A stretch of DNA of 64,000 nt from a phage, in the sequence record PZ452595.1; one strand, 5' to 3'. How positions within the stretch are numbered: the stretch's first letter is position 1; each line of letters starts with the position of its first letter. The translations under genes were made by a program, and so were the position numbers. Below are positions 2,653 to 27,773 of the stretch, piece after piece. The notes below the pieces were generated by a model. The model saw nothing but the letters and a program-made list of their open reading frames with translations. It was not told where the DNA came from and did not search any database.

Positions 2653-4277
<1,625 letters not shown>

Positions 4278-4278
<1 letters not shown>

Positions 4279-4523
4279 TGGAAGGTTTAATTGAAGCTAT
4301 TAAATCAAACGACCTCGTAGCCGCTCGTAAATTATTTGCTGAAGCCATGGCTGCAAGAACGATTGATTTAATTAAAGAAGAAAAAATCGCTATCGCTCGT
4401 AATTTCTTAATCGAAGGTGAAGAACCTGAAGACGAGGATGAAGATGAAGATGATGACGAAGATAGCGATGATAAAGACGACAAAAAAGACAAAGACTCTG
4501 ACGAAGACGAGGATGATGAATAA
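4278..4523 (+). CDS. 67: Prohead core protein gp67 with acidic C-terminal tail
   Basis: About 80 aa between genes 20 and 68; C-terminus is a D/E-rich run. Confidence 0.8.
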
Positions 4524-4948
4524 TGCTTCTGATCCCTGAAACTCATGAATTAGTTCTCGAGAATGTCGAAGCACTTATTCCTGAAGCACAGGGTCGCTTT
4601 GACGAATTGTCTTCTGCTTTAAATAAAGACGATATAAATACAATTGTCGAGAATATGCTTGATGATGAAACTGATTTAGCGGTTGCATTAGCTTCTATTA
4701 ATGAAAATATGCCGTTAAATGAATTCATCGTTAAACATGTTTCCGCCCGTGGTGAAATTACTCGCACTAAAGACCGCAAAACGCGTGAACGTAATGCATT
4801 TCAAACCACTGGGCTGTCTAAAGCAAAACGTAGACAAATTGCTCGTAAAGCTACCAAAACGAAGATTGCCAATCCAGCAGGTCAATCTCGTGCTCAGCGT
4901 AAGCGTAAAAAAGCTCTTAAACGCCGTAAAGCATTAGGATTAAGCTAA
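4523..4948 (+). CDS. 68: Prohead core protein gp68 with basic C-terminal tail
   Basis: 141 aa between genes 67 and 21; lysine/arginine-rich C-terminus. Confidence 0.8.
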
Positions 4949-5586
4949 TGAATGAACCCCAATTACTAATTGAAACTTGGGGTCAACCTGGCGAAATTAT
5001 TGATGGCGTACCAATGCTTGAATCTCATGATGGAAAAGACTTAGGTTTAAAACCGGGTTTATACATCGAAGGAATATTCATGCAAGCGGAAGTTGTCAAT
5101 AGAAATAAACGTCTTTATCCAAAACGTATATTAGAAAAAGCGGTAAAAGACTATATTAATGAGCAAGTTTTAACTAAACAAGCTCTCGGAGAATTAAATC
5201 ATCCTCCACGCGCTAATGTTGACCCAATGCAAGCCGCTATCATTATAGAAGATATGTGGTGGAAAGGAAATGACGTATACGGACGAGCTCGTGTTATTGA
5301 AGGTGACCATGGTCCTGGAGATAAATTAGCAGCTAATATTCGTGCCGGATGGATTCCAGGAGTTTCTTCTCGTGGATTAGGTTCATTGACTGACACAAAT
5401 AAAGGTTATCGTATCGTAAACGAAGGATTCAAATTAACTGTAGGTGTTGATGCAGTATGGGGTCCAAGTGCTCCAGATGCATGGGTAACTCCTAAGGAAA
5501 TTACCGAATCACAGACGGCGGAAGCCGATACAAGTGCCGATGACGCCTATATGGCTCTCGCAGAGGCCATGAAAAAAGCGTTATAA
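4948..5586 (+). CDS. 21: Prohead core scaffold protein and protease gp21
   Basis: 212 aa, same length and position as T4 gp21. Confidence 0.9.
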   Translation: MNEPQLLIETWGQPGEIIDGVPMLESHDGKDLGLKPGLYIEGIFMQAEVVNRNKRLYPKRILEKAVKDYINEQVLTKQALGELNHPPRANVDPMQAAIIIEDMWWKGNDVYGRARVIEGDHGPGDKLAANIRAGWIPGVSSRGLGSLTDTNKGYRIVNEGFKLTVGVDAVWGPSAPDAWVTPKEITESQTAEADTSADDAYMALAEAMKKAL

Positions 5587-5616
5587 ATATTATTATCTAA
5601 ACAACAGGACTACAAA

Positions 5617-6426
5617 ATGCTTAAAGAACAACTGATTGCCGAAGCGCAGAAAATTGATGCTTCCGTTGCTCTTGATAGTATTTTCGAATCAGTTAATATT
5701 TCTCCGGAAGCAAAAGAAACTTTCGGCACTGTATTCGAAGCTACCGTCAAGCAGCACGCCGTTAAATTAGCTGAATCTCATATCGCTAAAATTGCTGAAA
5801 AAGCAGAAGAAGAAGTAGAAAAAAATAAAGAAGAAGCCGAAGAAAAAGCTGAGAAGAAAATCGCTGAGCAAGCTTCTAAATTCATTGACCATCTTGCAAA
5901 AGAATGGCTCGCTGAAAATAAATTAGCAGTTGATAAAGGCATCAAAGCCGAACTGTTTGAATCCATGCTTGGTGGATTAAAAGAGCTCTTTGTTGAACAC
6001 AACGTTGTTGTTCCAGAAGAATCAGTTGATGTTGTAGCTGAAATGGAAGAAGAGCTGCAAGAACATAAAGAAGAATCAGCTCGTCTGTTCGAAGAACTCA
6101 ATAAGCGTGACGCATATATCAATTATGTGCAGCGTGAAGTGGCATTGAGCGAAAGTACTAAAGATCTGACTGAGTCTCAAAAAGAAAAAGTCTCTGCTCT
6201 GGTCGAAGGTATGGATTATTCAGATGCATTCTCAAGTAAATTGAGTGCAATCGTAGAAATGGTGAAGAAATCTAATAAAGATGAAAGCACTATTACTGAG
6301 AGTATAAATACTCCTGATACTGAAGCAGCCGGACTGAATTTCGTCACTGAAGCTGTAGAAGATAAAGCTGCACAAGGTGCAGAAGATATTGTAAGTGTAT
6401 ATGCGAAAGTCGCATCTCGTTTCTAA
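5617..6426 (+). CDS. 22: Prohead core scaffold protein gp22
   Basis: 269 aa, E/K-rich coiled-coil-like sequence upstream of gene 23. Confidence 0.9.
   Translation: MLKEQLIAEAQKIDASVALDSIFESVNISPEAKETFGTVFEATVKQHAVKLAESHIAKIAEKAEEEVEKNKEEAEEKAEKKIAEQASKFIDHLAKEWLAENKLAVDKGIKAELFESMLGGLKELFVEHNVVVPEESVDVVAEMEEELQEHKEESARLFEELNKRDAYINYVQREVALSESTKDLTESQKEKVSALVEGMDYSDAFSSKLSAIVEMVKKSNKDESTITESINTPDTEAAGLNFVTEAVEDKAAQGAEDIVSVYAKVASRF
6303..6310 (+). promoter_or_regulatory. T4 late promoter motif TATAAATA inside the 3' part of gene 22 (P23)
   Basis: Exact TATAAATA about 135 nt upstream of the gene 23 ATG. Confidence 0.5.
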
Positions 6427-6444: not shown

Positions 6445-8010
6445 ATGACTATCAAAACTAAAGCTGAACTTTTGAACAAATGGAAGCCATTACTGGAAGG
6501 TGAAGGTTTACCGGAAATTGCTAATAGCAAACAAGCGATTATCGCTAAAATCTTTGAAAACCAGGAAAAAGATTTCCAGACAGCTCCGGAATATAAAGAC
6601 GAAAAAATTGCTCAGGCATTCGGTTCTTTCTTAACAGAAGCTGAAATCGGTGGTGACCACGGTTACAATGCTACCAACATCGCTGCAGGTCAGACTTCTG
6701 GCGCAGTAACTCAGATTGGCCCAGCTGTTATGGGTATGGTACGTCGTGCTATTCCTAACCTGATTGCTTTCGATATTTGTGGTGTTCAGCCGATGAACAG
6801 CCCGACTGGCCAGGTATTCGCATTGCGTGCAGTATATGGTAAAGACCCAGTGGCTGCCGGTGCTAAAGAAGCATTCCACCCAATGTATGGTCCAGATGCA
6901 ATGTTCTCTGGTCAGGGTGCTGCTAAGAAATTCCCAGCTCTGGCTGCTAGCACACAAACCGTTGTAGGTGATATCTATACTCACTTCTTCCAGGAAACTG
7001 GTACTGTGTATCTGCAAGCTTCCGCTGTAGTAACAATCGATTCTGGTGCGACTGATGCTGCTAAATTAGATGCTGAAATTAAGAAACAAATGGAAGCTGG
7101 TGCACTGGTAGAAATCGCTGAAGGTATGGCTACTTCTATCGCTGAACTCCAGGAAGGTTTCAACGGTTCTACCGATAACCCATGGAATGAAATGGGCTTC
7201 CGTATCGATAAACAAGTTATCGAAGCTAAATCTCGTCAGCTGAAAGCTGCTTACTCTATCGAATTAGCACAAGACCTCCGCGCTGTTCACGGTATGGATG
7301 CTGATGCTGAACTGTCTGGTATTCTGGCTACAGAAATTATGCTGGAAATCAACCGTGAAGTTGTTGATTGGATTAACTACTCAGCACAGGTTGGTAAATC
7401 TGGTATGACCCTGACTCCGGGTTCTAAAGCTGGTGTATTTGACTTCCAGGACCCAATCGATATTCGTGGTGCTCGCTGGGCAGGTGAATCCTTTAAAGCT
7501 CTGTTGTTCCAGATTGACAAAGAAGCAGTTGAAATTGCTCGTCAGACTGGTCGCGGCGAAGGTAACTTCATTATCGCTTCCCGTAACGTAGTTAACGTTT
7601 TGGCTTCAGTTGATACCGGCATTTCTTATGCTGCACAGGGTCTGGCTACCGGCTTCAACACTGATACTACCAAGTCAGTATTTGCTGGTGTTCTGGGTGG
7701 TAAATACCGTGTATATATCGACCAGTATGCTAAACAGGATTATTTCACTGTAGGTTATAAAGGTCCGAACGAAATGGATGCTGGTATTTACTATGCTCCA
7801 TATGTAGCTCTGACTCCGCTGCGTGGTTCCGATCCGAAGAACTTCCAACCGGTAATGGGATTCAAAACTCGTTACGGTATCGGTATCAACCCATTTGCAG
7901 AATCCGCTGCTCAGGCTCCGGCTTCTCGCATCCAGAGCGGTATGCCTTCTATTCTGAACAGCCTTGGTAAAAACGCTTACTTCCGCCGTGTATATGTTAA
8001 AGGTATCTAA
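6445..8010 (+). CDS. 23: Major capsid protein gp23
   Basis: 521 aa, same length as T4 gp23; characteristic sequence and codon usage of a highly expressed gene. Confidence 0.97.
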   Translation: MTIKTKAELLNKWKPLLEGEGLPEIANSKQAIIAKIFENQEKDFQTAPEYKDEKIAQAFGSFLTEAEIGGDHGYNATNIAAGQTSGAVTQIGPAVMGMVRRAIPNLIAFDICGVQPMNSPTGQVFALRAVYGKDPVAAGAKEAFHPMYGPDAMFSGQGAAKKFPALAASTQTVVGDIYTHFFQETGTVYLQASAVVTIDSGATDAAKLDAEIKKQMEAGALVEIAEGMATSIAELQEGFNGSTDNPWNEMGFRIDKQVIEAKSRQLKAAYSIELAQDLRAVHGMDADAELSGILATEIMLEINREVVDWINYSAQVGKSGMTLTPGSKAGVFDFQDPIDIRGARWAGESFKALLFQIDKEAVEIARQTGRGEGNFIIASRNVVNVLASVDTGISYAAQGLATGFNTDTTKSVFAGVLGGKYRVYIDQYAKQDYFTVGYKGPNEMDAGIYYAPYVALTPLRGSDPKNFQPVMGFKTRYGIGINPFAESAAQAPASRIQSGMPSILNSLGKNAYFRRVYVKGI

Positions 8011-8024
8011 TCTTTGACGATTTA

Positions 8025-8042
8025 AGGGACCTTCGGGTCCCT
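8025..8042 (+). terminator. Rho-independent terminator after gene 23 (GGGACC-UUCG-GGUCCC)
   Basis: Perfect GC stem with UUCG tetraloop, followed by a T-rich tract. Confidence 0.7.
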
Positions 8043-8058
8043 TTAGTTGTTTTTATGG

Positions 8059-8066
8059 TATAAATA
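8059..8066 (+). promoter_or_regulatory. T4 late promoter motif TATAAATA (P24)
   Basis: Exact TATAAATA about 28 nt upstream of the gene 24 ATG. Confidence 0.6.
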
Positions 8067-8093
8067 AATCATATAAACCAAAAGGAAAGCGCA

Positions 8094-9377
8094 ATGGCTA
8101 AAATCAACGAACTTCTGCGCGAGTCAACCACAACGAATAGCAACTCAATCGGTCGCCCAAATCTCGTTGCTTTGACTCGCGCTACCACTAAATTAATATA
8201 TTCTGACATTGTAGCAACGCAAAGAACTAATCAACCTGTTGCTGCTTTTTATGGTATCAAATACCTTAACCCAGACAACGAATTTACATTTAAAACTGGT
8301 GCTACTTACGCTGGCGAAGCTGGATATGTAGACCGAGAACAAATCACAGAATTAACAGAAGAGTCTAAATTAACTCTCAATAAAGGCGATTTATTCAAAT
8401 ATAATAACATCGTTTATAAAGTATTAGAAGATACTCCATTCGCTGATATTGAAGAAAGCGACTTAGAGTTAGCTCTTCAGATTGCAATTGTTCTTTTAAA
8501 GGTTCGTCTATTTTCTGACGCAGCGTCAACAAGCAAATTTGAAAGCTCTGATAGCGAAATTGCGGATGCTAGATTTCAGATTAATAAATGGCAAACCGCG
8601 GTTAAATCTCGTAAACTTAAAACTGGTATCACAGTTGAATTAGCGCAAGATTTAGAAGCAAATGGATTCGATGCTCCTAATTTCTTGGAAGATTTGCTTG
8701 CAACTGAAATGGCAGATGAAATCAATAAAGACATTCTGCAGTCTTTGATTACAGTGTCAAAACGCTATAAAGTTACAGGAATTACTGATAGTGGATTCAT
8801 CGATTTGAGTTATGCATCTGCTCCTGAAGCTGGTCGTTCATTATACCGAATGGTATGTGAAATGGTTTCGCATATCCAAAAAGAATCAACTTATACAGCA
8901 ACGTTCTGTGTTGCTTCAGCTCGTGCCGCTGCGATTCTTGCTGCATCAGGTTGGTTAAAACATAAACCAGAAGATGATAAATATCTTTCACAAAATGCCT
9001 ATGGGTTCTTAGCTAATGGTTTACCGCTTTATTGCGATACTAACAGCCCATTAGATTATGTAATCGTTGGCGTAGTAGAAAATATCGGTGAAAAAGAAAT
9101 TGTTGGATCAATTTTCTATGCTCCGTATACAGAAGGTCTCGACTTAGATGACCCTGAACATGTAGGTGCATTTAAAGTTGTGGTTGATCCAGAAAGCTTA
9201 CAACCGTCTATCGGTTTATTAGTTAGATATGCTTTATCTGCAAATCCTTACACCGTAGCAAAAGATGAAAAAGAAGCAAGAATAATTGACGGTGGAGACA
9301 TGGATAAAATGGCGGGTCGTTCAGATTTGTCTGTTTTATTAGGTGTTAAATTACCAAAAATTATTATTGATGAATAA
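8094..9377 (+). CDS. 24: Head vertex protein gp24
   Basis: 427 aa, same length as T4 gp24; directly follows gene 23 with no intervening gene. Confidence 0.93.
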   Translation: MAKINELLRESTTTNSNSIGRPNLVALTRATTKLIYSDIVATQRTNQPVAAFYGIKYLNPDNEFTFKTGATYAGEAGYVDREQITELTEESKLTLNKGDLFKYNNIVYKVLEDTPFADIEESDLELALQIAIVLLKVRLFSDAASTSKFESSDSEIADARFQINKWQTAVKSRKLKTGITVELAQDLEANGFDAPNFLEDLLATEMADEINKDILQSLITVSKRYKVTGITDSGFIDLSYASAPEAGRSLYRMVCEMVSHIQKESTYTATFCVASARAAAILAASGWLKHKPEDDKYLSQNAYGFLANGLPLYCDTNSPLDYVIVGVVENIGEKEIVGSIFYAPYTEGLDLDDPEHVGAFKVVVDPESLQPSIGLLVRYALSANPYTVAKDEKEARIIDGGDMDKMAGRSDLSVLLGVKLPKIIIDE

Positions 9378-22998: not shown

Positions 22999-23002
22999 CA
23001 AT

Positions 23003-23020
23003 GGGGGCCTTTCGGTCCCC
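23003..23020. terminator. Bidirectional terminator hairpin after gene 54
   Basis: GGGGGCC-TTTC-GGTCCCC stem-loop followed by a T-run, between convergent genes. Confidence 0.6.
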
Positions 23021-23026
23021 ATATTT

Positions 23027-23317
23027 TTATTTACGGAATGAAATGAAAGCAGAAACTGAAGCAACTAAACTGTCTTCAATATAAACTTCAATTTTTACAG
23101 GAGCTTCTGACTCAAATTTACCTGTTACTACACCCTGAAAAATACTTTCAGTCTGTTCTGGCTTTGAAAAATTTTCAGAAGGAAAAATTCCGAACTTTTT
23201 ATCTGTTCCAAAAATTTTAATAAATTCATCGTAAACTGCTTCATTAAAAGCATTATCAGCAGGAATAACGCCTTCAACTACAAGTTCTTGACCTAAAAAG
23301 CGCAAAGAAGATTTCAT
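23027..23317 (-). CDS. Hypothetical protein downstream of alt
   Basis: 96 aa ORF preceded by the conserved early promoter/SD cassette. Confidence 0.6.
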   Translation of the reverse strand: MKSSLRFLGQELVVEGVIPADNAFNEAVYDEFIKIFGTDKKFGIFPSENFSKPEQTESIFQGVVTGKFESEAPVKIEVYIEDSLVASVSAFISFRK

Positions 23318-23324
23318 TTTGTGT

Positions 23325-23378
23325 TCCTCATGTTATGTCAGTAAGACTACTATAACACAACACGAGGGACTTGTAAAC
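23325..23378 (-). promoter_or_regulatory. Early promoter plus 5' UTR cassette, copy 1
   Basis: On the - strand: GTTTAC, 18-bp spacer, TGn-TATAGT, then GAGGA SD before the ATG; 54-bp near-identical copy at 39187..39240. Confidence 0.5.
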
Positions 23379-25435
23379 TACATTTTGAACTTTTTAGACA
23401 TTCCGTTGATGTTAACCAAAGAAGCCAAGATTTGAGAAACTTCGTTTTCCTCTTCTTTTGATTCTTCTACAAGGAATTGATTAAATCCAGCCATTGGACG
23501 AACTTCACCAGTTTCCATTAGATGGTCGCCATCATATACTGATTCTTCTAATTGTTCAGAAGGAGGAACGATTGTACCTTCGATTAGATACTTGTTATAA
23601 GCAGTTTCTTTCATAAAGTACGTACTTACTTTATTAATCTTCAGTAAAATTCCACGAGGTAGAATAACTTCAGCTTCTGATGGAAATCCTGATAAATGAC
23701 CTGGAACGATAACTTTGATTCGCTCAGCTCCTTTAATTACCATACCCACGCTAGTTTCAGCATCTTCATTAGCATATGTAGAATGACTACCCATATGCAT
23801 CAAATCTTCTGCATCAACAGAACCTTCTCCTTCGCCAGAAAATACCGCACCGGAATCATCTAAGGCCATATAGTTTTTACCATGCTCACCGAAGATATTT
23901 GGTTTAAGCGATGTGGATACGAAGTTCTTGAAATAGAACATTTTATTTTCAATATTATGACGTAAAGTTTTAAAGGTAACTTCTTGTCCACGATAAAGAG
24001 TAGTTCCTGGAGGAAGAACTGAACCTTTAGCGAATGCAGAATCCAACGTCTCGATGTGCTTAATAGCTCGTTCCATATATTCTTCACGGGTAGAATCTGG
24101 TTTACCCAAAAGGAACGAGTTCATTTCAACATATGAATCTGCACAATAATCTTCAATTACATCAGATTCAGCTTGAGTTAATCCTTTTGGAGTTACTTCG
24201 GTGCTTGCGTATTCATATGCCTGAGCAGCAGATTCATTAATCAATTTATAAATGCCATTCATGACAAATTGAATAATAGCTGTCTTTTCATCTGGCGTAG
24301 CTTTAGAACCTTTAACCAAATCATTGATAATTTTCTTAATAACATCAAAGCTATTAGAAATATTAATATCAGCAAGATCGCTTAAAATTTTATCAGTTTT
24401 ATAATCAAAGAATTCTTTATTCTTTAAATATTCTTGAGAACCTTGATATGTTATATCGCTCTGCAACTTGATAGATGGATCACGTAAACGCGCATGGGCT
24501 AATGCAATATGATTTCGGAAACTTTCTAGTTCATAATCGCTAGATTTAAAACGAGAAGCACTTCTCATACCACCGATAGCTCCTTTGCTGAAGTTTGAAC
24601 CAATCTGAATAACGCCAGAGTTCATTGGTCCTTCTGCTTTATATACCGGAACTTTAGATTCAAACTCTTGATATTTCTTAGCAGCGAAGCTATCACCCTG
24701 AAGTGAAGCATCGACAGTAGAATATTGAGCTTGTGCTGCTAATCGACGACTAATTTTAGTTTTTTGAATAACAGCTTGATCCGTGCGCTTATCATTTTCT
24801 AAAGCAATAGAAGCAGCAACAGCAACAGCTTTAGGAACAGCATTACCTGTTTTAACATCTACATAAACATCACCGACCTTTGATTCAACTTTTGTGAATA
24901 ACTCAGTTGAAATAGGAGGTACACCTGGAATGTCTTCTAAATTGGCATTTTTACGGTAAACCATAATATATGCGTACTTTTTATCATAGTCCCAGATTTC
25001 CTTTAAAAGAACATATCGACCTGCTCCTTTAGTACGTACTAAACGGTCAGCAATAACTTGCATTTGACGAGCTGCGCCATTTGTTTTACTCTTTAGTACG
25101 CGGAATAAGCATGCGTCAATTTTATACTGCTTCATTGTTTGAAGAGCAGTATCAAAAACAGCATTAATGACGCCAATTGGATTTCCACCCAAGTTTCTAA
25201 GCTTAACCAGCGATAATTTCTCGTTGACGCCTATCATTACGATATGCATCATTTTATCGCCTGGCTTAACGTTTTTATTTGTATCACCGCCAGAGGTGTA
25301 TGTACAAAATCTAAATCCAGGAAGCACACTTTCTTCGCCGGCTTGAATAGCAAAAATTTGTGGTATTTTATGCTTAGGATTTAAGTTAACAACCGGCGCC
25401 GAAGCGCCGTCAAATAATTCTGTAATAAGTTCCAT
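23378..25435 (-). CDS. alt: Alt-family ADP-ribosyltransferase, paralog 1
   Basis: 685 aa (T4 Alt is about 682 aa); C-terminal region carries ART-type R, STS and ExE motifs (YRGQ, FVSTSL, EAEVILPRG). Confidence 0.85.
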   Translation of the reverse strand: MELITELFDGASAPVVNLNPKHKIPQIFAIQAGEESVLPGFRFCTYTSGGDTNKNVKPGDKMMHIVMIGVNEKLSLVKLRNLGGNPIGVINAVFDTALQTMKQYKIDACLFRVLKSKTNGAARQMQVIADRLVRTKGAGRYVLLKEIWDYDKKYAYIMVYRKNANLEDIPGVPPISTELFTKVESKVGDVYVDVKTGNAVPKAVAVAASIALENDKRTDQAVIQKTKISRRLAAQAQYSTVDASLQGDSFAAKKYQEFESKVPVYKAEGPMNSGVIQIGSNFSKGAIGGMRSASRFKSSDYELESFRNHIALAHARLRDPSIKLQSDITYQGSQEYLKNKEFFDYKTDKILSDLADINISNSFDVIKKIINDLVKGSKATPDEKTAIIQFVMNGIYKLINESAAQAYEYASTEVTPKGLTQAESDVIEDYCADSYVEMNSFLLGKPDSTREEYMERAIKHIETLDSAFAKGSVLPPGTTLYRGQEVTFKTLRHNIENKMFYFKNFVSTSLKPNIFGEHGKNYMALDDSGAVFSGEGEGSVDAEDLMHMGSHSTYANEDAETSVGMVIKGAERIKVIVPGHLSGFPSEAEVILPRGILLKINKVSTYFMKETAYNKYLIEGTIVPPSEQLEESVYDGDHLMETGEVRPMAGFNQFLVEESKEEENEVSQILASLVNINGMSKKFKM

Positions 25436-25438
25436 GAT

Positions 25439-27535
25439 TTATCCTTGAACGAACTTGTAAGGCATGTTTGTAATATCTATGCAAGACGCAATAATTCCAA
25501 GAGATGATTCTACTTTCTGTTTAACATTTGATGAAACAAATGATGCAAAGTCAACTCTGTCTTCTATTTCAATATCACCTGTCATTGTAACTACTTCGCC
25601 GGTTTCCATTAGACGGTCACCGTCATAAATTACCGATTCGGTGAGTTCTTCCGTGGTCATAACTTCAGCTTGAATGAGTTTTGTATTATTAGATGTTGTT
25701 CCGTCATTATTAGAAGCATCGGTTATTTTATTAACTTTGACCATCAATCCGCGCGGTAGAATAACTTCAGCTTCTGTTGCTATTCCGAGACTTCCTGGAT
25801 ATACAACATTAACTTTATGTGCGCCGTCAATTGCCCATCCTATTTGAACTTTAACGTATTCAGGATTTTCTTTATACGCTCTTATTTCGTTTGGATTAAT
25901 AGTTATTCCTTCTTCATTTTTATCAACTGTTAATTCATTGCGAGCTTCTGGTTCTAAAAGACCAATACCAGCATGTGTAATTCCAAAACGTCCAAAAATG
26001 ATAGGAGTTAAAGAAGTAGATACAAAATTTCTGAAATAGAACACTTTATTTTTAACTAGCGCTTCGTATATAGGAGCAGTCATACTTTGAGCACGATAAA
26101 CTGTAATGCCTTCCGGTATACGGTCACCATTTTCAAAAGCTGAATCTAAATTATTTATAGCAGATTCAATTTCTTTTTCACTCATTACATCATATCGTTC
26201 TGGATTGTAACGACCTAAAAGAAGATTATTAATATCTGTATATCCTGAGCCACAATATTCTCTAATGCCGCGCTTTTGTGATGGAGTATATTTAGAACCA
26301 TCACGGGCAATAGTAATATCAATCATTGGGCCTGCACCAATTCCAGAAAAACTATAAATCATTCGTTTGAGGAATTTAGTTTTTGCCGCATTCCAGGCAT
26401 TTTTAGTTATTTCTCCCCAGACTTCATCTGACTGCCCTTTACGAGTTTTATTATGTTTATCAAGCCAATTATCTTTGTATTCTTCAAAGAATTTATTAAC
26501 AGCTGCTGCGTATTTCTCTAAACATTTTATTGAAGTAGTTGGTTCATTTTTGATTGCGTTAAAAATTACATCTTTAATTTTTTCTGAAACTTCATCAACC
26601 TCACTTTTTGAAAAGAATTTATAGTCATAGTGAAGTTCATTCGCAGTTCCTTCGGCAATAATTTTTGCTGCCTTAGTTTTAGAAGCTAATGAATTAATTC
26701 CAAGCTTCATTTCTTCTGCTTCGGGAATTAAAGGAGCGGTAGCAGGTTTATTGAAATTAGCTGCGGTAGATTCATACTTCTGGAATAATTCACTTTCAAA
26801 TCTAGAAGACTCTAACGATTGACTTTGTGCAATTGCTCTACGGGAAATTTTAACTTTAACGATTACAGCTTGGTCAGAACGTTTATCGTTTTCTTGTGCA
26901 ATAGATGCTGCAATTGCCTCATTTTTAGTTACTTGAGCCCCAGTATCTTTATTGATATAAACATCACCGACCTTCGATTCAACTTTAGTAAAGAGCTCGG
27001 TACTAATTTCCGGAACTCCTGGAATGTCTTCTAGTGATACATTTTTGCGATGTATAAGAATATATGCATACTTTTTATCATAATCCCAGAGTTCCTTAAG
27101 AAGGACGTATCTGCCACCTGAACGACTACGGATAAGTCTATCAGCAATAACTTGAATTTGTCGAGCTTGACCAGCGGTTTTAGACTTAAGAATACGAAGC
27201 ATACAGGCATCAATTTTATACTGACGCATTGTTTGCATCGCAACAGTAAAAACTGAATTGATATAATTAATTGGGCTTGGACCAAGACCTTTTAATTTAG
27301 CAATTGAACCTTTAGCAGTTAATGTAAAAGGAACAATATGCATCATTTTATCGCCCATTTTTAAATCGCGATTAGTATCACCTCCAGATGTATAGGTACA
27401 TAAACGAAAGCCTGGTTGTTCAATTGCATCATCAACGTGAACTGAAAAAATTTGCGGTATTTTCTTCTTTGGATTTAAGTTTGTAATCGGAAGAGTAGTA
27501 TCTTCGTCAAATAATTCTGTAATGAGTTCCATCAT
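25439..27535 (-). CDS. Alt-family ADP-ribosyltransferase, paralog 2
   Basis: 698 aa; N-terminal 230 aa roughly 60-65% identical to paralog 1 by eye; same R, STS and ExE motifs (YRAQ, FVSTSL, EAEVILPRG). Confidence 0.85.
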   Translation of the reverse strand: MMELITELFDEDTTLPITNLNPKKKIPQIFSVHVDDAIEQPGFRLCTYTSGGDTNRDLKMGDKMMHIVPFTLTAKGSIAKLKGLGPSPINYINSVFTVAMQTMRQYKIDACMLRILKSKTAGQARQIQVIADRLIRSRSGGRYVLLKELWDYDKKYAYILIHRKNVSLEDIPGVPEISTELFTKVESKVGDVYINKDTGAQVTKNEAIAASIAQENDKRSDQAVIVKVKISRRAIAQSQSLESSRFESELFQKYESTAANFNKPATAPLIPEAEEMKLGINSLASKTKAAKIIAEGTANELHYDYKFFSKSEVDEVSEKIKDVIFNAIKNEPTTSIKCLEKYAAAVNKFFEEYKDNWLDKHNKTRKGQSDEVWGEITKNAWNAAKTKFLKRMIYSFSGIGAGPMIDITIARDGSKYTPSQKRGIREYCGSGYTDINNLLLGRYNPERYDVMSEKEIESAINNLDSAFENGDRIPEGITVYRAQSMTAPIYEALVKNKVFYFRNFVSTSLTPIIFGRFGITHAGIGLLEPEARNELTVDKNEEGITINPNEIRAYKENPEYVKVQIGWAIDGAHKVNVVYPGSLGIATEAEVILPRGLMVKVNKITDASNNDGTTSNNTKLIQAEVMTTEELTESVIYDGDRLMETGEVVTMTGDIEIEDRVDFASFVSSNVKQKVESSLGIIASCIDITNMPYKFVQG

Positions 27536-27555
27536 ATCCTCTCTAGTGTTTATTC

Positions 27556-27563
27556 TATTTATA
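27556..27563 (-). promoter_or_regulatory. T4 late promoter motif TATAAATA upstream of the alt pair
   Basis: Reverse complement of TATAAATA about 20 nt upstream of the paralog 2 ATG. Confidence 0.55.
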
Positions 27564-27566
27564 AAA

Positions 27567-27588
27567 TTAAAGGCCCGAAGGCCTTTAA
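27567..27588 (-). terminator. Terminator hairpin (AAAGGCC-UUCG-GGCCUUU on the - strand)
   Basis: 9-bp stem overlapping the stop of the 62 aa ORF, upstream of the alt pair. Confidence 0.6.
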
Positions 27589-27773
27589 TAATCTATCGGT
27601 AAGAGAGTACGATATATTTCAAACTTTGGACCTTTTTCATAAGCATCAAAAGTTTCTGTGAATTTATTATAAGCATATGCATCAATAAATTCAATCATGA
27701 TTTGTGATACAGAAGTAGAAACATCTCCGCCTTCTTTTTGAGCCACAACAATTGTTTCTAAGTAAGCTTTCAT
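27585..27773 (-). CDS. Hypothetical protein
   Basis: 62 aa ORF overlapping the gene 30 stop by 4 nt. Confidence 0.5.
   Translation of the reverse strand: MKAYLETIVVAQKEGGDVSTSVSQIMIEFIDAYAYNKFTETFDAYEKGPKFEIYRTLLPIDY

Follow-up and report, generated by a model that had tools for sequence, protein, structure and literature searches.

The 64,000-nucleotide stretch of phage DNA in sequence record PZ452595.1, referred to as the window, carries on its minus strand two adjacent genes for Alt-like ADP-ribosyltransferases, alt and a paralog directly downstream of it. For this paralog of 685 amino acids (aa) the working name alt2 is used here. By all comparisons made, the pair is the ordinary alt and alt.-2 of T2, T6, RB32 and about 400 T4-like phages, and as such it is already known. 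With a probability of roughly 60%, alt2 encodes a second arginine ADP-ribosyltransferase that would be made late, packaged in the head and injected, and that would have its own target-recognition module and partly different targets from those of Alt. Most Tequatrovirus genomes have this two-gene arrangement, which is already annotated in them. The single Alt of T4 is derived from it by deletion of the second copy.

An earlier note on this DNA, made from its letters and open reading frames (ORFs) only, had described two adjacent minus-strand ORFs of 698 and 685 aa lying 3 nt apart. In the ORF list of the window these coordinates are reproduced exactly (25439..27535 and 23378..25435); the gap consists of the letters ATC between the alt stop codon TAA (25441-25439) and the alt2 start codon ATG (25435-25433). 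The alt ORF opens with ATGATG (27530-27535), in which the first ATG starts at 27535 and the second at 27532. The second ATG agrees with the start used in T4 Alt (MELITE...) and in the annotations of T2, T6 and RB32, and it has the better Shine-Dalgarno spacing. For these reasons the predicted start of alt is most likely ATG 27532, which gives a protein of 697 aa and not 698. The annotation of alt in Shigella phage SH7 takes the first ATG of ATGATG as the start. The genes and their segments, all on the minus strand, are the following:

25439..27532, minus strand: alt, T2-type allele, 697 aa plus stop (PF03496, 2.2e-37; phrog_802, 4e-272)
26819-27532, minus strand: N-terminal domain of alt
26297-26818, minus strand: middle module of alt
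25637-26296, minus strand: ADP-ribosyltransferase core of alt, with R480 at 26093-26095, STS at 26012-26020 and EAE at 25766-25774 (motif codons verified)
25442-25636, minus strand: C-terminal propeptide of alt, after LTE-632 (predicted from the cleavage motif)
23378..25435, minus strand: alt2, the second Alt-like gene (alt.-2 in RB32), 685 aa plus stop
24725-25435, minus strand: N-terminal domain of alt2
24182-24724, minus strand: alt2's own helical middle module
23543-24181, minus strand: ADP-ribosyltransferase core of alt2, with R482 at 23990-23992, STS at 23909-23917 and EAE at 23669-23677
23381-23542, minus strand: C-terminal propeptide of alt2, after LEE-631 (predicted from the cleavage motif)

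Both proteins have a four-part organization, with an N-terminal domain of about 237 residues, a middle part of about 180 residues, a C3/VIP2/Vis-like R-S-E core with an E-x-E motif and an acidic tail. Overall they are 42% identical (BLASTP, E = 5e-159). By segment, the identity amounts to 68% over the N-terminal 237 residues, where 60-65% had been estimated by eye, 21% in the middle, 36% in the ADP-ribosyltransferase core and 38% in the C-terminal tail. That the middle regions are unrelated, as the earlier note had stated, agrees with what is found when these segments (about 175-180 residues each) are compared on their own: there is no detectable similarity, neither at the sequence level (z = 0.7 against shuffles, BLASTP E = 45) nor in a profile-profile alignment with hhalign (probability 1.9%).

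The assignment of both genes to the Alt family is borne out by the PF03496 match, the N-terminal domain and the catalytic motifs, which are present in alt as well as in alt2. Both proteins score above the curated PF03496 cut-off of 23.4 bits, with 128.7 bits (2.2e-37) for alt and 71.9 bits (5.8e-20) for alt2, and phrog_802 matches both over their full length. The PF26846 (Tevenvirinae_ADPRT) N-terminal domain is assigned, in precomputed annotation, to a 99%-identical cluster representative of alt2 and to homologs. The catalytic residues are R480, S505-T-S507 and E587-A-E589 in alt and R482, S507-T-S509 and E587-A-E589 in alt2. They occur in the right order and with the right spacing in both proteins, are invariant in 23 family members and reach a conservation of 90% or more in 63 diverse ones. 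The earlier note had located this arginine, STS and ExE triad in both C-termini; all motifs are present, but they lie at residues 480-590 and not at the very C-terminus. The AlphaFold2 model of alt2, with a mean predicted local distance difference test (pLDDT) value of 74.7, consists of an alpha/beta N-terminal domain (residues ~12-215), an all-helical part (~250-470), a beta-rich core (478-622) and a disordered tail (629-685). The ADP-ribosyltransferase fold of the R-S-E clade was found. By all computational criteria used, alt2 is an intact arginine-type (E-x-E) ADP-ribosyltransferase. Sequence, fold and locus features place both genes in the Alt/VIP2 clade of R-S-E ADP-ribosyltransferases as well as in the T-even Alt family.

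More distant members of PF03496 are the bacterial secreted toxins Vis, Certhrax, C3bot, VIP2, iota Ia and CDTa, with a sequence identity of 14-24%. Unlike the T-even proteins, the C3-like and binary toxins have no T-even N-terminal domain, no protease-removed propeptides and no virion delivery. A sequence search of the PDB returned no solved Alt structure; with alt the only matches were weak ones to CDTa and iota Ia, and with alt2 there were none. In NCBIfam no family match was obtained for any of the four proteins scanned. T4 itself encodes two further enzymes of this kind, ModA and ModB, which are about 200 aa long, expressed early, unpackaged and encoded at another locus than alt. They are R-S-E ADP-ribosyltransferases of the same clade as Alt (PMC5512222). 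The shared N-terminal domain of alt and alt2 is rare: a profile search found 74 proteins with it among 1.84 billion representatives. PF03496 is carried by 59 of the 63 long proteins with the Alt N-terminal domain, the other four having no Pfam domain at all, and as far as these sequences indicate the domain is found almost only in Alt-like proteins. A role as a general delivery handle for many kinds of effectors, comparable to MuF, is unsupported, as those 59 of 63 carry the same ADP-ribosyltransferase domain. A GNAT acetyltransferase fold was also considered for the N-terminal domain and rejected, as the combination of a clear structural match and the acetyl-CoA loop Q/R-x-x-G-x-G/A was not found.

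The second Alt, whose novelty the earlier note had implied, is present in reference T-even genomes such as T2, T6, RB32, RB33 and RB27 and in hundreds of others, so that this part of the claim falls. A block of 4.8 kb around the pair is 97.1-97.9% DNA-identical over its full length to RB33, RB32, Sf22, T2, RB27 and many other phages. At least 80% of the block is covered in 322 records, many of which annotate two Alt-like ADP-ribosyltransferases; a common annotation is "Alt-like RNA polymerase ADP-ribosyltransferase (x2)". In RB32 the genes are named alt and alt.-2, and in T2 and T6 they have the same lengths and the same 3-nt gap. The pairwise alignment and the comparison to T4, T2 and T6 that the earlier note had proposed thus confirm the homology and place the same two genes in T2 and T6. 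With the pair of T2, T6 and RB32 the DNA identity over the whole block is 97.6-97.9%, and the proteins are 98-100% identical to their counterparts there in every segment. The 446 residues specific to alt2 are found with an identity of 95% or more in 402 phage records. The alt.-2 of RB32 (YP_803136), T2 (YP_010073850) and T6 (BBF63615) is the same gene as alt2, with 685 aa and 99% protein identity, directly after alt, with a 3-nt gap and the same flanking genes; nothing of substance differs, apart from 3-7 amino acids and about 10% synonymous divergence. Outside the block, the window shows about 97% identity to Tequatroviruses such as AR1 and Sf21, and its sequence thus identifies it as a T2/T6-like Tequatrovirus, T-even but not T4. 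Duplications of alt in T4-like phages have already been listed (Nolan et al., 2006; PMC1524935). In the literature searched, the second copy is mentioned only at the level of annotation, with nothing on its function or packaging.

The proposal that alt2 is packaged and injected builds on the known fate of T4 Alt. This component of the prohead core, of which each head contains about 40 copies, leaves the particle together with the DNA (PMC9026906). It is cut by gp21 after ITE-6 and LTE-619, resulting in a protein of 68.2 kDa (PMC5694885). The mass of mature T4 Alt computed from these two sites agrees exactly with the published value. The gp21 motifs of alt and alt2 align, at motif level only, with the mapped T4 sites:

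T4 Alt: ITE-6, LTE-619, calculated mature mass 68.2 kDa
alt of the window: ITE-6, LTE-632, calculated mature mass 70.1 kDa
alt2 protein of the window: ITE-6, LEE-631, calculated mature mass 69.1 kDa

The C-terminal peptide predicted to be removed is acidic in T4 Alt, alt and alt2, and the conservation of E6 and E631 extends throughout the family. T4 Alt is the positional ortholog of the alt of the window and has the same cleavage and catalytic motifs. With alt2 it has the four-part architecture and all motifs in common, while the overall identity is 41% and the middle modules are without similarity.

The signals from which the expression of the two genes can be predicted are the following:

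27556..27563, minus strand: T4-type late promoter motif TATAAATA, 21 nt upstream of alt ATG 27532
27537..27543, minus strand: Shine-Dalgarno sequence of alt, GAGAGGA, 1 nt from ATG 27535 and 4 nt from ATG 27532
25442..25446, minus strand: Shine-Dalgarno sequence of alt2, AAGGA, within the final alt codons and 6 nt before the alt2 ATG, with the alt TAA in between

The late promoter motif that had been reported upstream of the pair is thus found back at 27563..27556. The window contains 19 copies of TATAAATA, against 8.6 expected by chance. A second exact TATAAATA is located inside alt (26152-26159, minus strand), near codon 458, with 717 nt from there to the alt2 ATG; it may be a chance match or an internal late promoter that also serves alt2. 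The translational coupling of the two genes, which the earlier note had presented as a fact, is plausible. The tight alt/alt2 junction, with AAGGA in the end of alt, is in favor of it, and it has been preserved in RB32, T2, T6, SH7 and even Dhakavirus WG01. On the other hand, alt2 has a good ribosome binding site of its own that is not masked. No RNA structure masking the alt2 start was more stable than shuffled sequence (z = +1.07), and a masked start as in classical coupling was rejected.

Taken in order, the proposed mechanism would run as follows. The TATAAATA promoter before alt would drive late transcription of both genes, and alt2 would be translated from its own AAGGA, possibly aided by ribosomes that terminate 3 nt upstream. 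Both proteins would then enter the prohead core, where gp21 would trim them at the sites corresponding to those mapped in T4 Alt, one after ITE-6 and the other after an L-x-E motif that lies about 55-65 residues before the C-terminus. The trimmed Alt and alt2 proteins would be ejected with the DNA into the next host, in which each enzyme would move ADP-ribose from nicotinamide adenine dinucleotide (NAD+) to arginines of host proteins. The differing middle modules, together with the diverged loops of the core, would give the two enzymes target sets that differ at least in part.

In T4, only a remnant of alt2 is left. According to a note in the T4 RefSeq record, the first part of alt is duplicated in alt.-1 and alt.-2. 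These two hypothetical proteins of 61 and 67 aa correspond to the first ~350 nt (~116 codons) of alt2, with 94% DNA identity (BLASTN). In line with this, the PHROG families of T4 alt.-1 and alt.-2 match alt2 (2e-40 and 1e-37) better than alt (1e-21 and 2e-19). The reading frame of the remnant is broken by a 1-nt deletion in an A-run, and the remnant is joined to the final few alt2 codons across the 9-bp direct repeat CTAAA[A/G]AGT, by which 1.69 kb has been removed:

23389..25096, minus strand: stretch absent in T4, with the 9-bp repeats CTAAAGAGT (25088-25096) and CTAAAAAGT (23389-23397) flanking 1.69 kb (BLASTN against the T4 locus, L001, 6034-6460)

Compared to the full-length alt2, T4 alt.-1/alt.-2 is thus a frameshifted remnant with a 1.69-kb deletion. 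A search for the T4-type deletion junction found it in 90 phage records, RB55, RB59, ACG-C40 and HY03 among them. From these sequences, two copies are the common and older state, and the single Alt of T4 is derived by deletion of the second. T4, the model for injected ADP-ribosyltransferases, is a natural deletion mutant that lacks the second enzyme. If the proposed role of alt2 is correct, 50 years of T4-based work have missed a standard injected effector of T-even phages.

The remaining gene of T4 also differs from its counterpart in the window. The alt of the window is 70% identical overall to T4 Alt (NP_049811). In the N-terminal part 237 of 238 residues are identical and the tail is 92% identical, compared to 32% in the middle and 64% in the core; for the central 352 residues together the identity is 44% (tblastn). 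This comparison was made between positions 25637-26818 of the window and positions 6455-8503 of the T4 locus. Beyond residue 240, the alt of the window is 76% identical to WG01_200 of Dhakavirus WG01 versus 54% to T4 Alt. Judged from these alignments, alt is a mosaic relative to T4 Alt, and its centre exists as distinct T2-type and T4-type alleles, of which the T2-type is found in about 309 records at an identity of at least 95%. In Shigella phage SH7 (KX828711; L006, 1-3711), alt is of the T4 type (96% to T4 Alt) and a full-length alt2 (98%) is present as well. Having the T4-type alt allele is thus independent of having lost the second gene.

Where it is present, alt2 is under strong purifying selection. 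Among the window, T2, T6 and RB32, only 3-9 amino acids differ at a synonymous divergence (dS) of ~0.1, and the ratio of nonsynonymous to synonymous substitution rates (dN/dS) is 0.020-0.046 for alt2 and 0.026-0.055 for alt. The pair is also old. Dhakavirus WG01 (L005, 244-6356) has three tandem Alt-like genes of 631, 693 and 707 aa, with gaps of 8 nt and 3 nt. WG01_200 pairs with alt, with the 76% identity beyond residue 240 mentioned above, and WG01_199 pairs with alt2 (52%); the duplication is therefore older than the split between Tequatrovirus and Dhakavirus. Like the pair of the window, the WG01 array lies between alt.1 and alt.-3 with tight spacing, ORF200 being the ortholog of alt and ORF199 that of alt2. 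Unlike the pair, it contains an extra divergent upstream copy, ORF201 (631 aa), and ORF199 is 49% identical to alt2 overall. Across Tevenvirinae, the number of Alt copies at this locus varies from 1 to 3.

Recombination between the two genes has left its traces as well. Four proteins (P0003-P0006) are single-breakpoint hybrids, in which the first 45 to 220 residues are alt-type and the remainder is alt2-type. Such a hybrid is the sole Alt gene at the locus in Yersinia phage PST (NC_027404; L009, 1802-3862), in Escherichia phage ECML-134 and in a 110-kb metagenomic contig; in L008 the hybrid gene spans positions 4001-6061. The Alt of PST (YP_009153796) is alt-type from residue 1 to ~100 and then alt2-type at 379 of the 383 distinguishing positions. 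The Alt proteins of PST and ECML-134 thus match alt2 from about residue 100 onward. They differ from the window in that there is one gene, which owes its promoter and its first ~100 residues to alt, the middle and catalytic parts of alt being gone. Unequal crossing-over between the N-terminal domains of the two paralogs is expected to yield just such hybrids. Those of PST and ECML-134 show that the middle and catalytic modules of alt2 are kept as the only Alt enzyme, placed behind the promoter of alt. Recent gene conversion between the N-terminal domains of the window itself was considered and rejected, as their DNA identity is an even ~65% and the longest identical tract is 20 nt. Natural variants thus occur with two genes (T2, T6), with the first only (T4) and with a second-type hybrid only (PST, ECML-134). 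Phages of these three kinds are ready-made material for finding the targets of alt2.

Several other explanations for alt2 have to be weighed against a second injected enzyme with partly different targets. It could be a redundant copy that is packaged and has the same main target as Alt, so that it adds dose or robustness and not a new target. The known targets of Alt are Arg265 of the RNA polymerase alpha subunit and other substrates. The common fold and arginine-type E-x-E motif of alt and alt2 would suit such a copy, as would the known promiscuity of Alt (PMC5512222). Moreover, T4 lives without alt2 and PST without the catalytic part of alt, indicating that either enzyme alone is enough for viability, although this says little, since alt is non-essential in the laboratory (PMC9026906). 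Redundancy is nevertheless unlikely: the middle modules have no detectable homology, the core identity is just 36%, and the two lineages, already separate before Tequatrovirus and Dhakavirus split, have since been maintained apart by strong purifying selection, which is unexpected for a plain back-up. A decaying relic, functionless and heading for loss, would be in keeping with the frameshifted, truncated remnant that is all that T4 and about 90 records hold. The ORF of alt2, however, is intact and conserved in the 402 records mentioned above, its catalytic residues are invariant and its sequence is retained in the hybrids of PST and ECML-134. The relic reading is effectively refuted by the selection data, with a dN/dS of 0.02-0.046.

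A different objection concerns delivery. The alt2 protein might be made late and act inside the producing cell, like ModA and ModB do, with host proteins, phage proteins or a defence system as its targets. When SH7 virions were analysed by liquid chromatography with tandem mass spectrometry (LC-MS/MS), only the upstream T4-type Alt was detected, with 2 peptides (PMC5238451), and no packaging study of alt2 was found in the literature searched. The absence of alt2 from these virions is weak evidence, because the run was shallow and identified only 13 structural proteins (PMC5238451). Against an enzyme that stays in the producing cell stands the combination of features that alt2 keeps, i.e., the Alt N-terminal domain (68%), the ITE-6 and LEE-631 motifs and the acidic tail, which together are sensible only for a protein of the prohead core. 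ModA and ModB lack the Alt N-terminal domain, the protease motifs and the acidic tail. An uninjected alt2 is therefore improbable, even more so than a redundant one. Besides the SH7 result, some other points weigh against an injected second enzyme with targets of its own. The production, packaging, cleavage, injection and activity of alt2 are all read from sequence, and the difference in targets is deduced solely from sequence divergence. The motif scan of the window placed no TATAAATA directly upstream of alt2, and late expression of alt2 would therefore depend on read-through from alt. In the PST hybrid the promoter and the first ~100 residues are alt-derived, so that its existence is no demonstration that native alt2 is packaged.

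The preferred explanation, a second injected ADP-ribosyltransferase, can be extended to a more specific one, which is put forward only tentatively. Here, the private helical module of ~180 residues would direct the injected alt2 protein to host proteins that are not modified by Alt, e.g., a defence or stress protein. The N-terminal domain would be a packaging handle and at the same time a recombination site, through which enzymes can be swapped, stacked (1-3 copies) or dropped. If the targets differ, the pair would be a small and tractable case of phages diversifying injected takeover or anti-defence enzymes by module exchange.

The order of the alt locus, with DNA ligase and alt.1 on one side of the pair and alt.-3 and gene 54 on the other, matches that in T4, T2, T6 and RB32. 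The flanking elements are the following:

27585-27773, minus strand: alt.1, 62 aa, between DNA ligase and alt (PF24647 'Phage_blade', 7.5e-29), with a 4-nt overlap with the ligase stop
27569..27586, minus strand: terminator-like hairpin AAAGGCC-TTCG-GGCCTTT followed by a T-rich run, overlapping the alt.1 stop (read directly from the sequence, absent from the consensus-scan list)
23349..23377, minus strand: sigma-70-like promoter TTTACA-17-TATAGT with TG, just past the alt2 stop and upstream of alt.-3 (consensus match only)
23027..23317, minus strand: alt.-3, 96 aa, DUF5498 (PF17602, 5e-64), at the same position in T4, T2 and RB32
23001..23022, no strand assigned: GC-rich hairpin between gene 54 (plus strand) and alt.-3 (minus strand), from the consensus scan

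The terminator-like hairpin at 27569..27586 would separate the unit of ligase and alt.1 from alt. At the other end, alt.-3 is the last gene of the block, followed by the converging baseplate gene 54, and the hairpin at 23001..23022 is likely a bidirectional terminator that closes the alt transcription unit. The promoter motif at 23349-23377 may provide alt.-3 with an early promoter of its own. In T4, C-terminal extensions of Alt.-3 allow escape from the CmdTAC defence system (PMC11618068).

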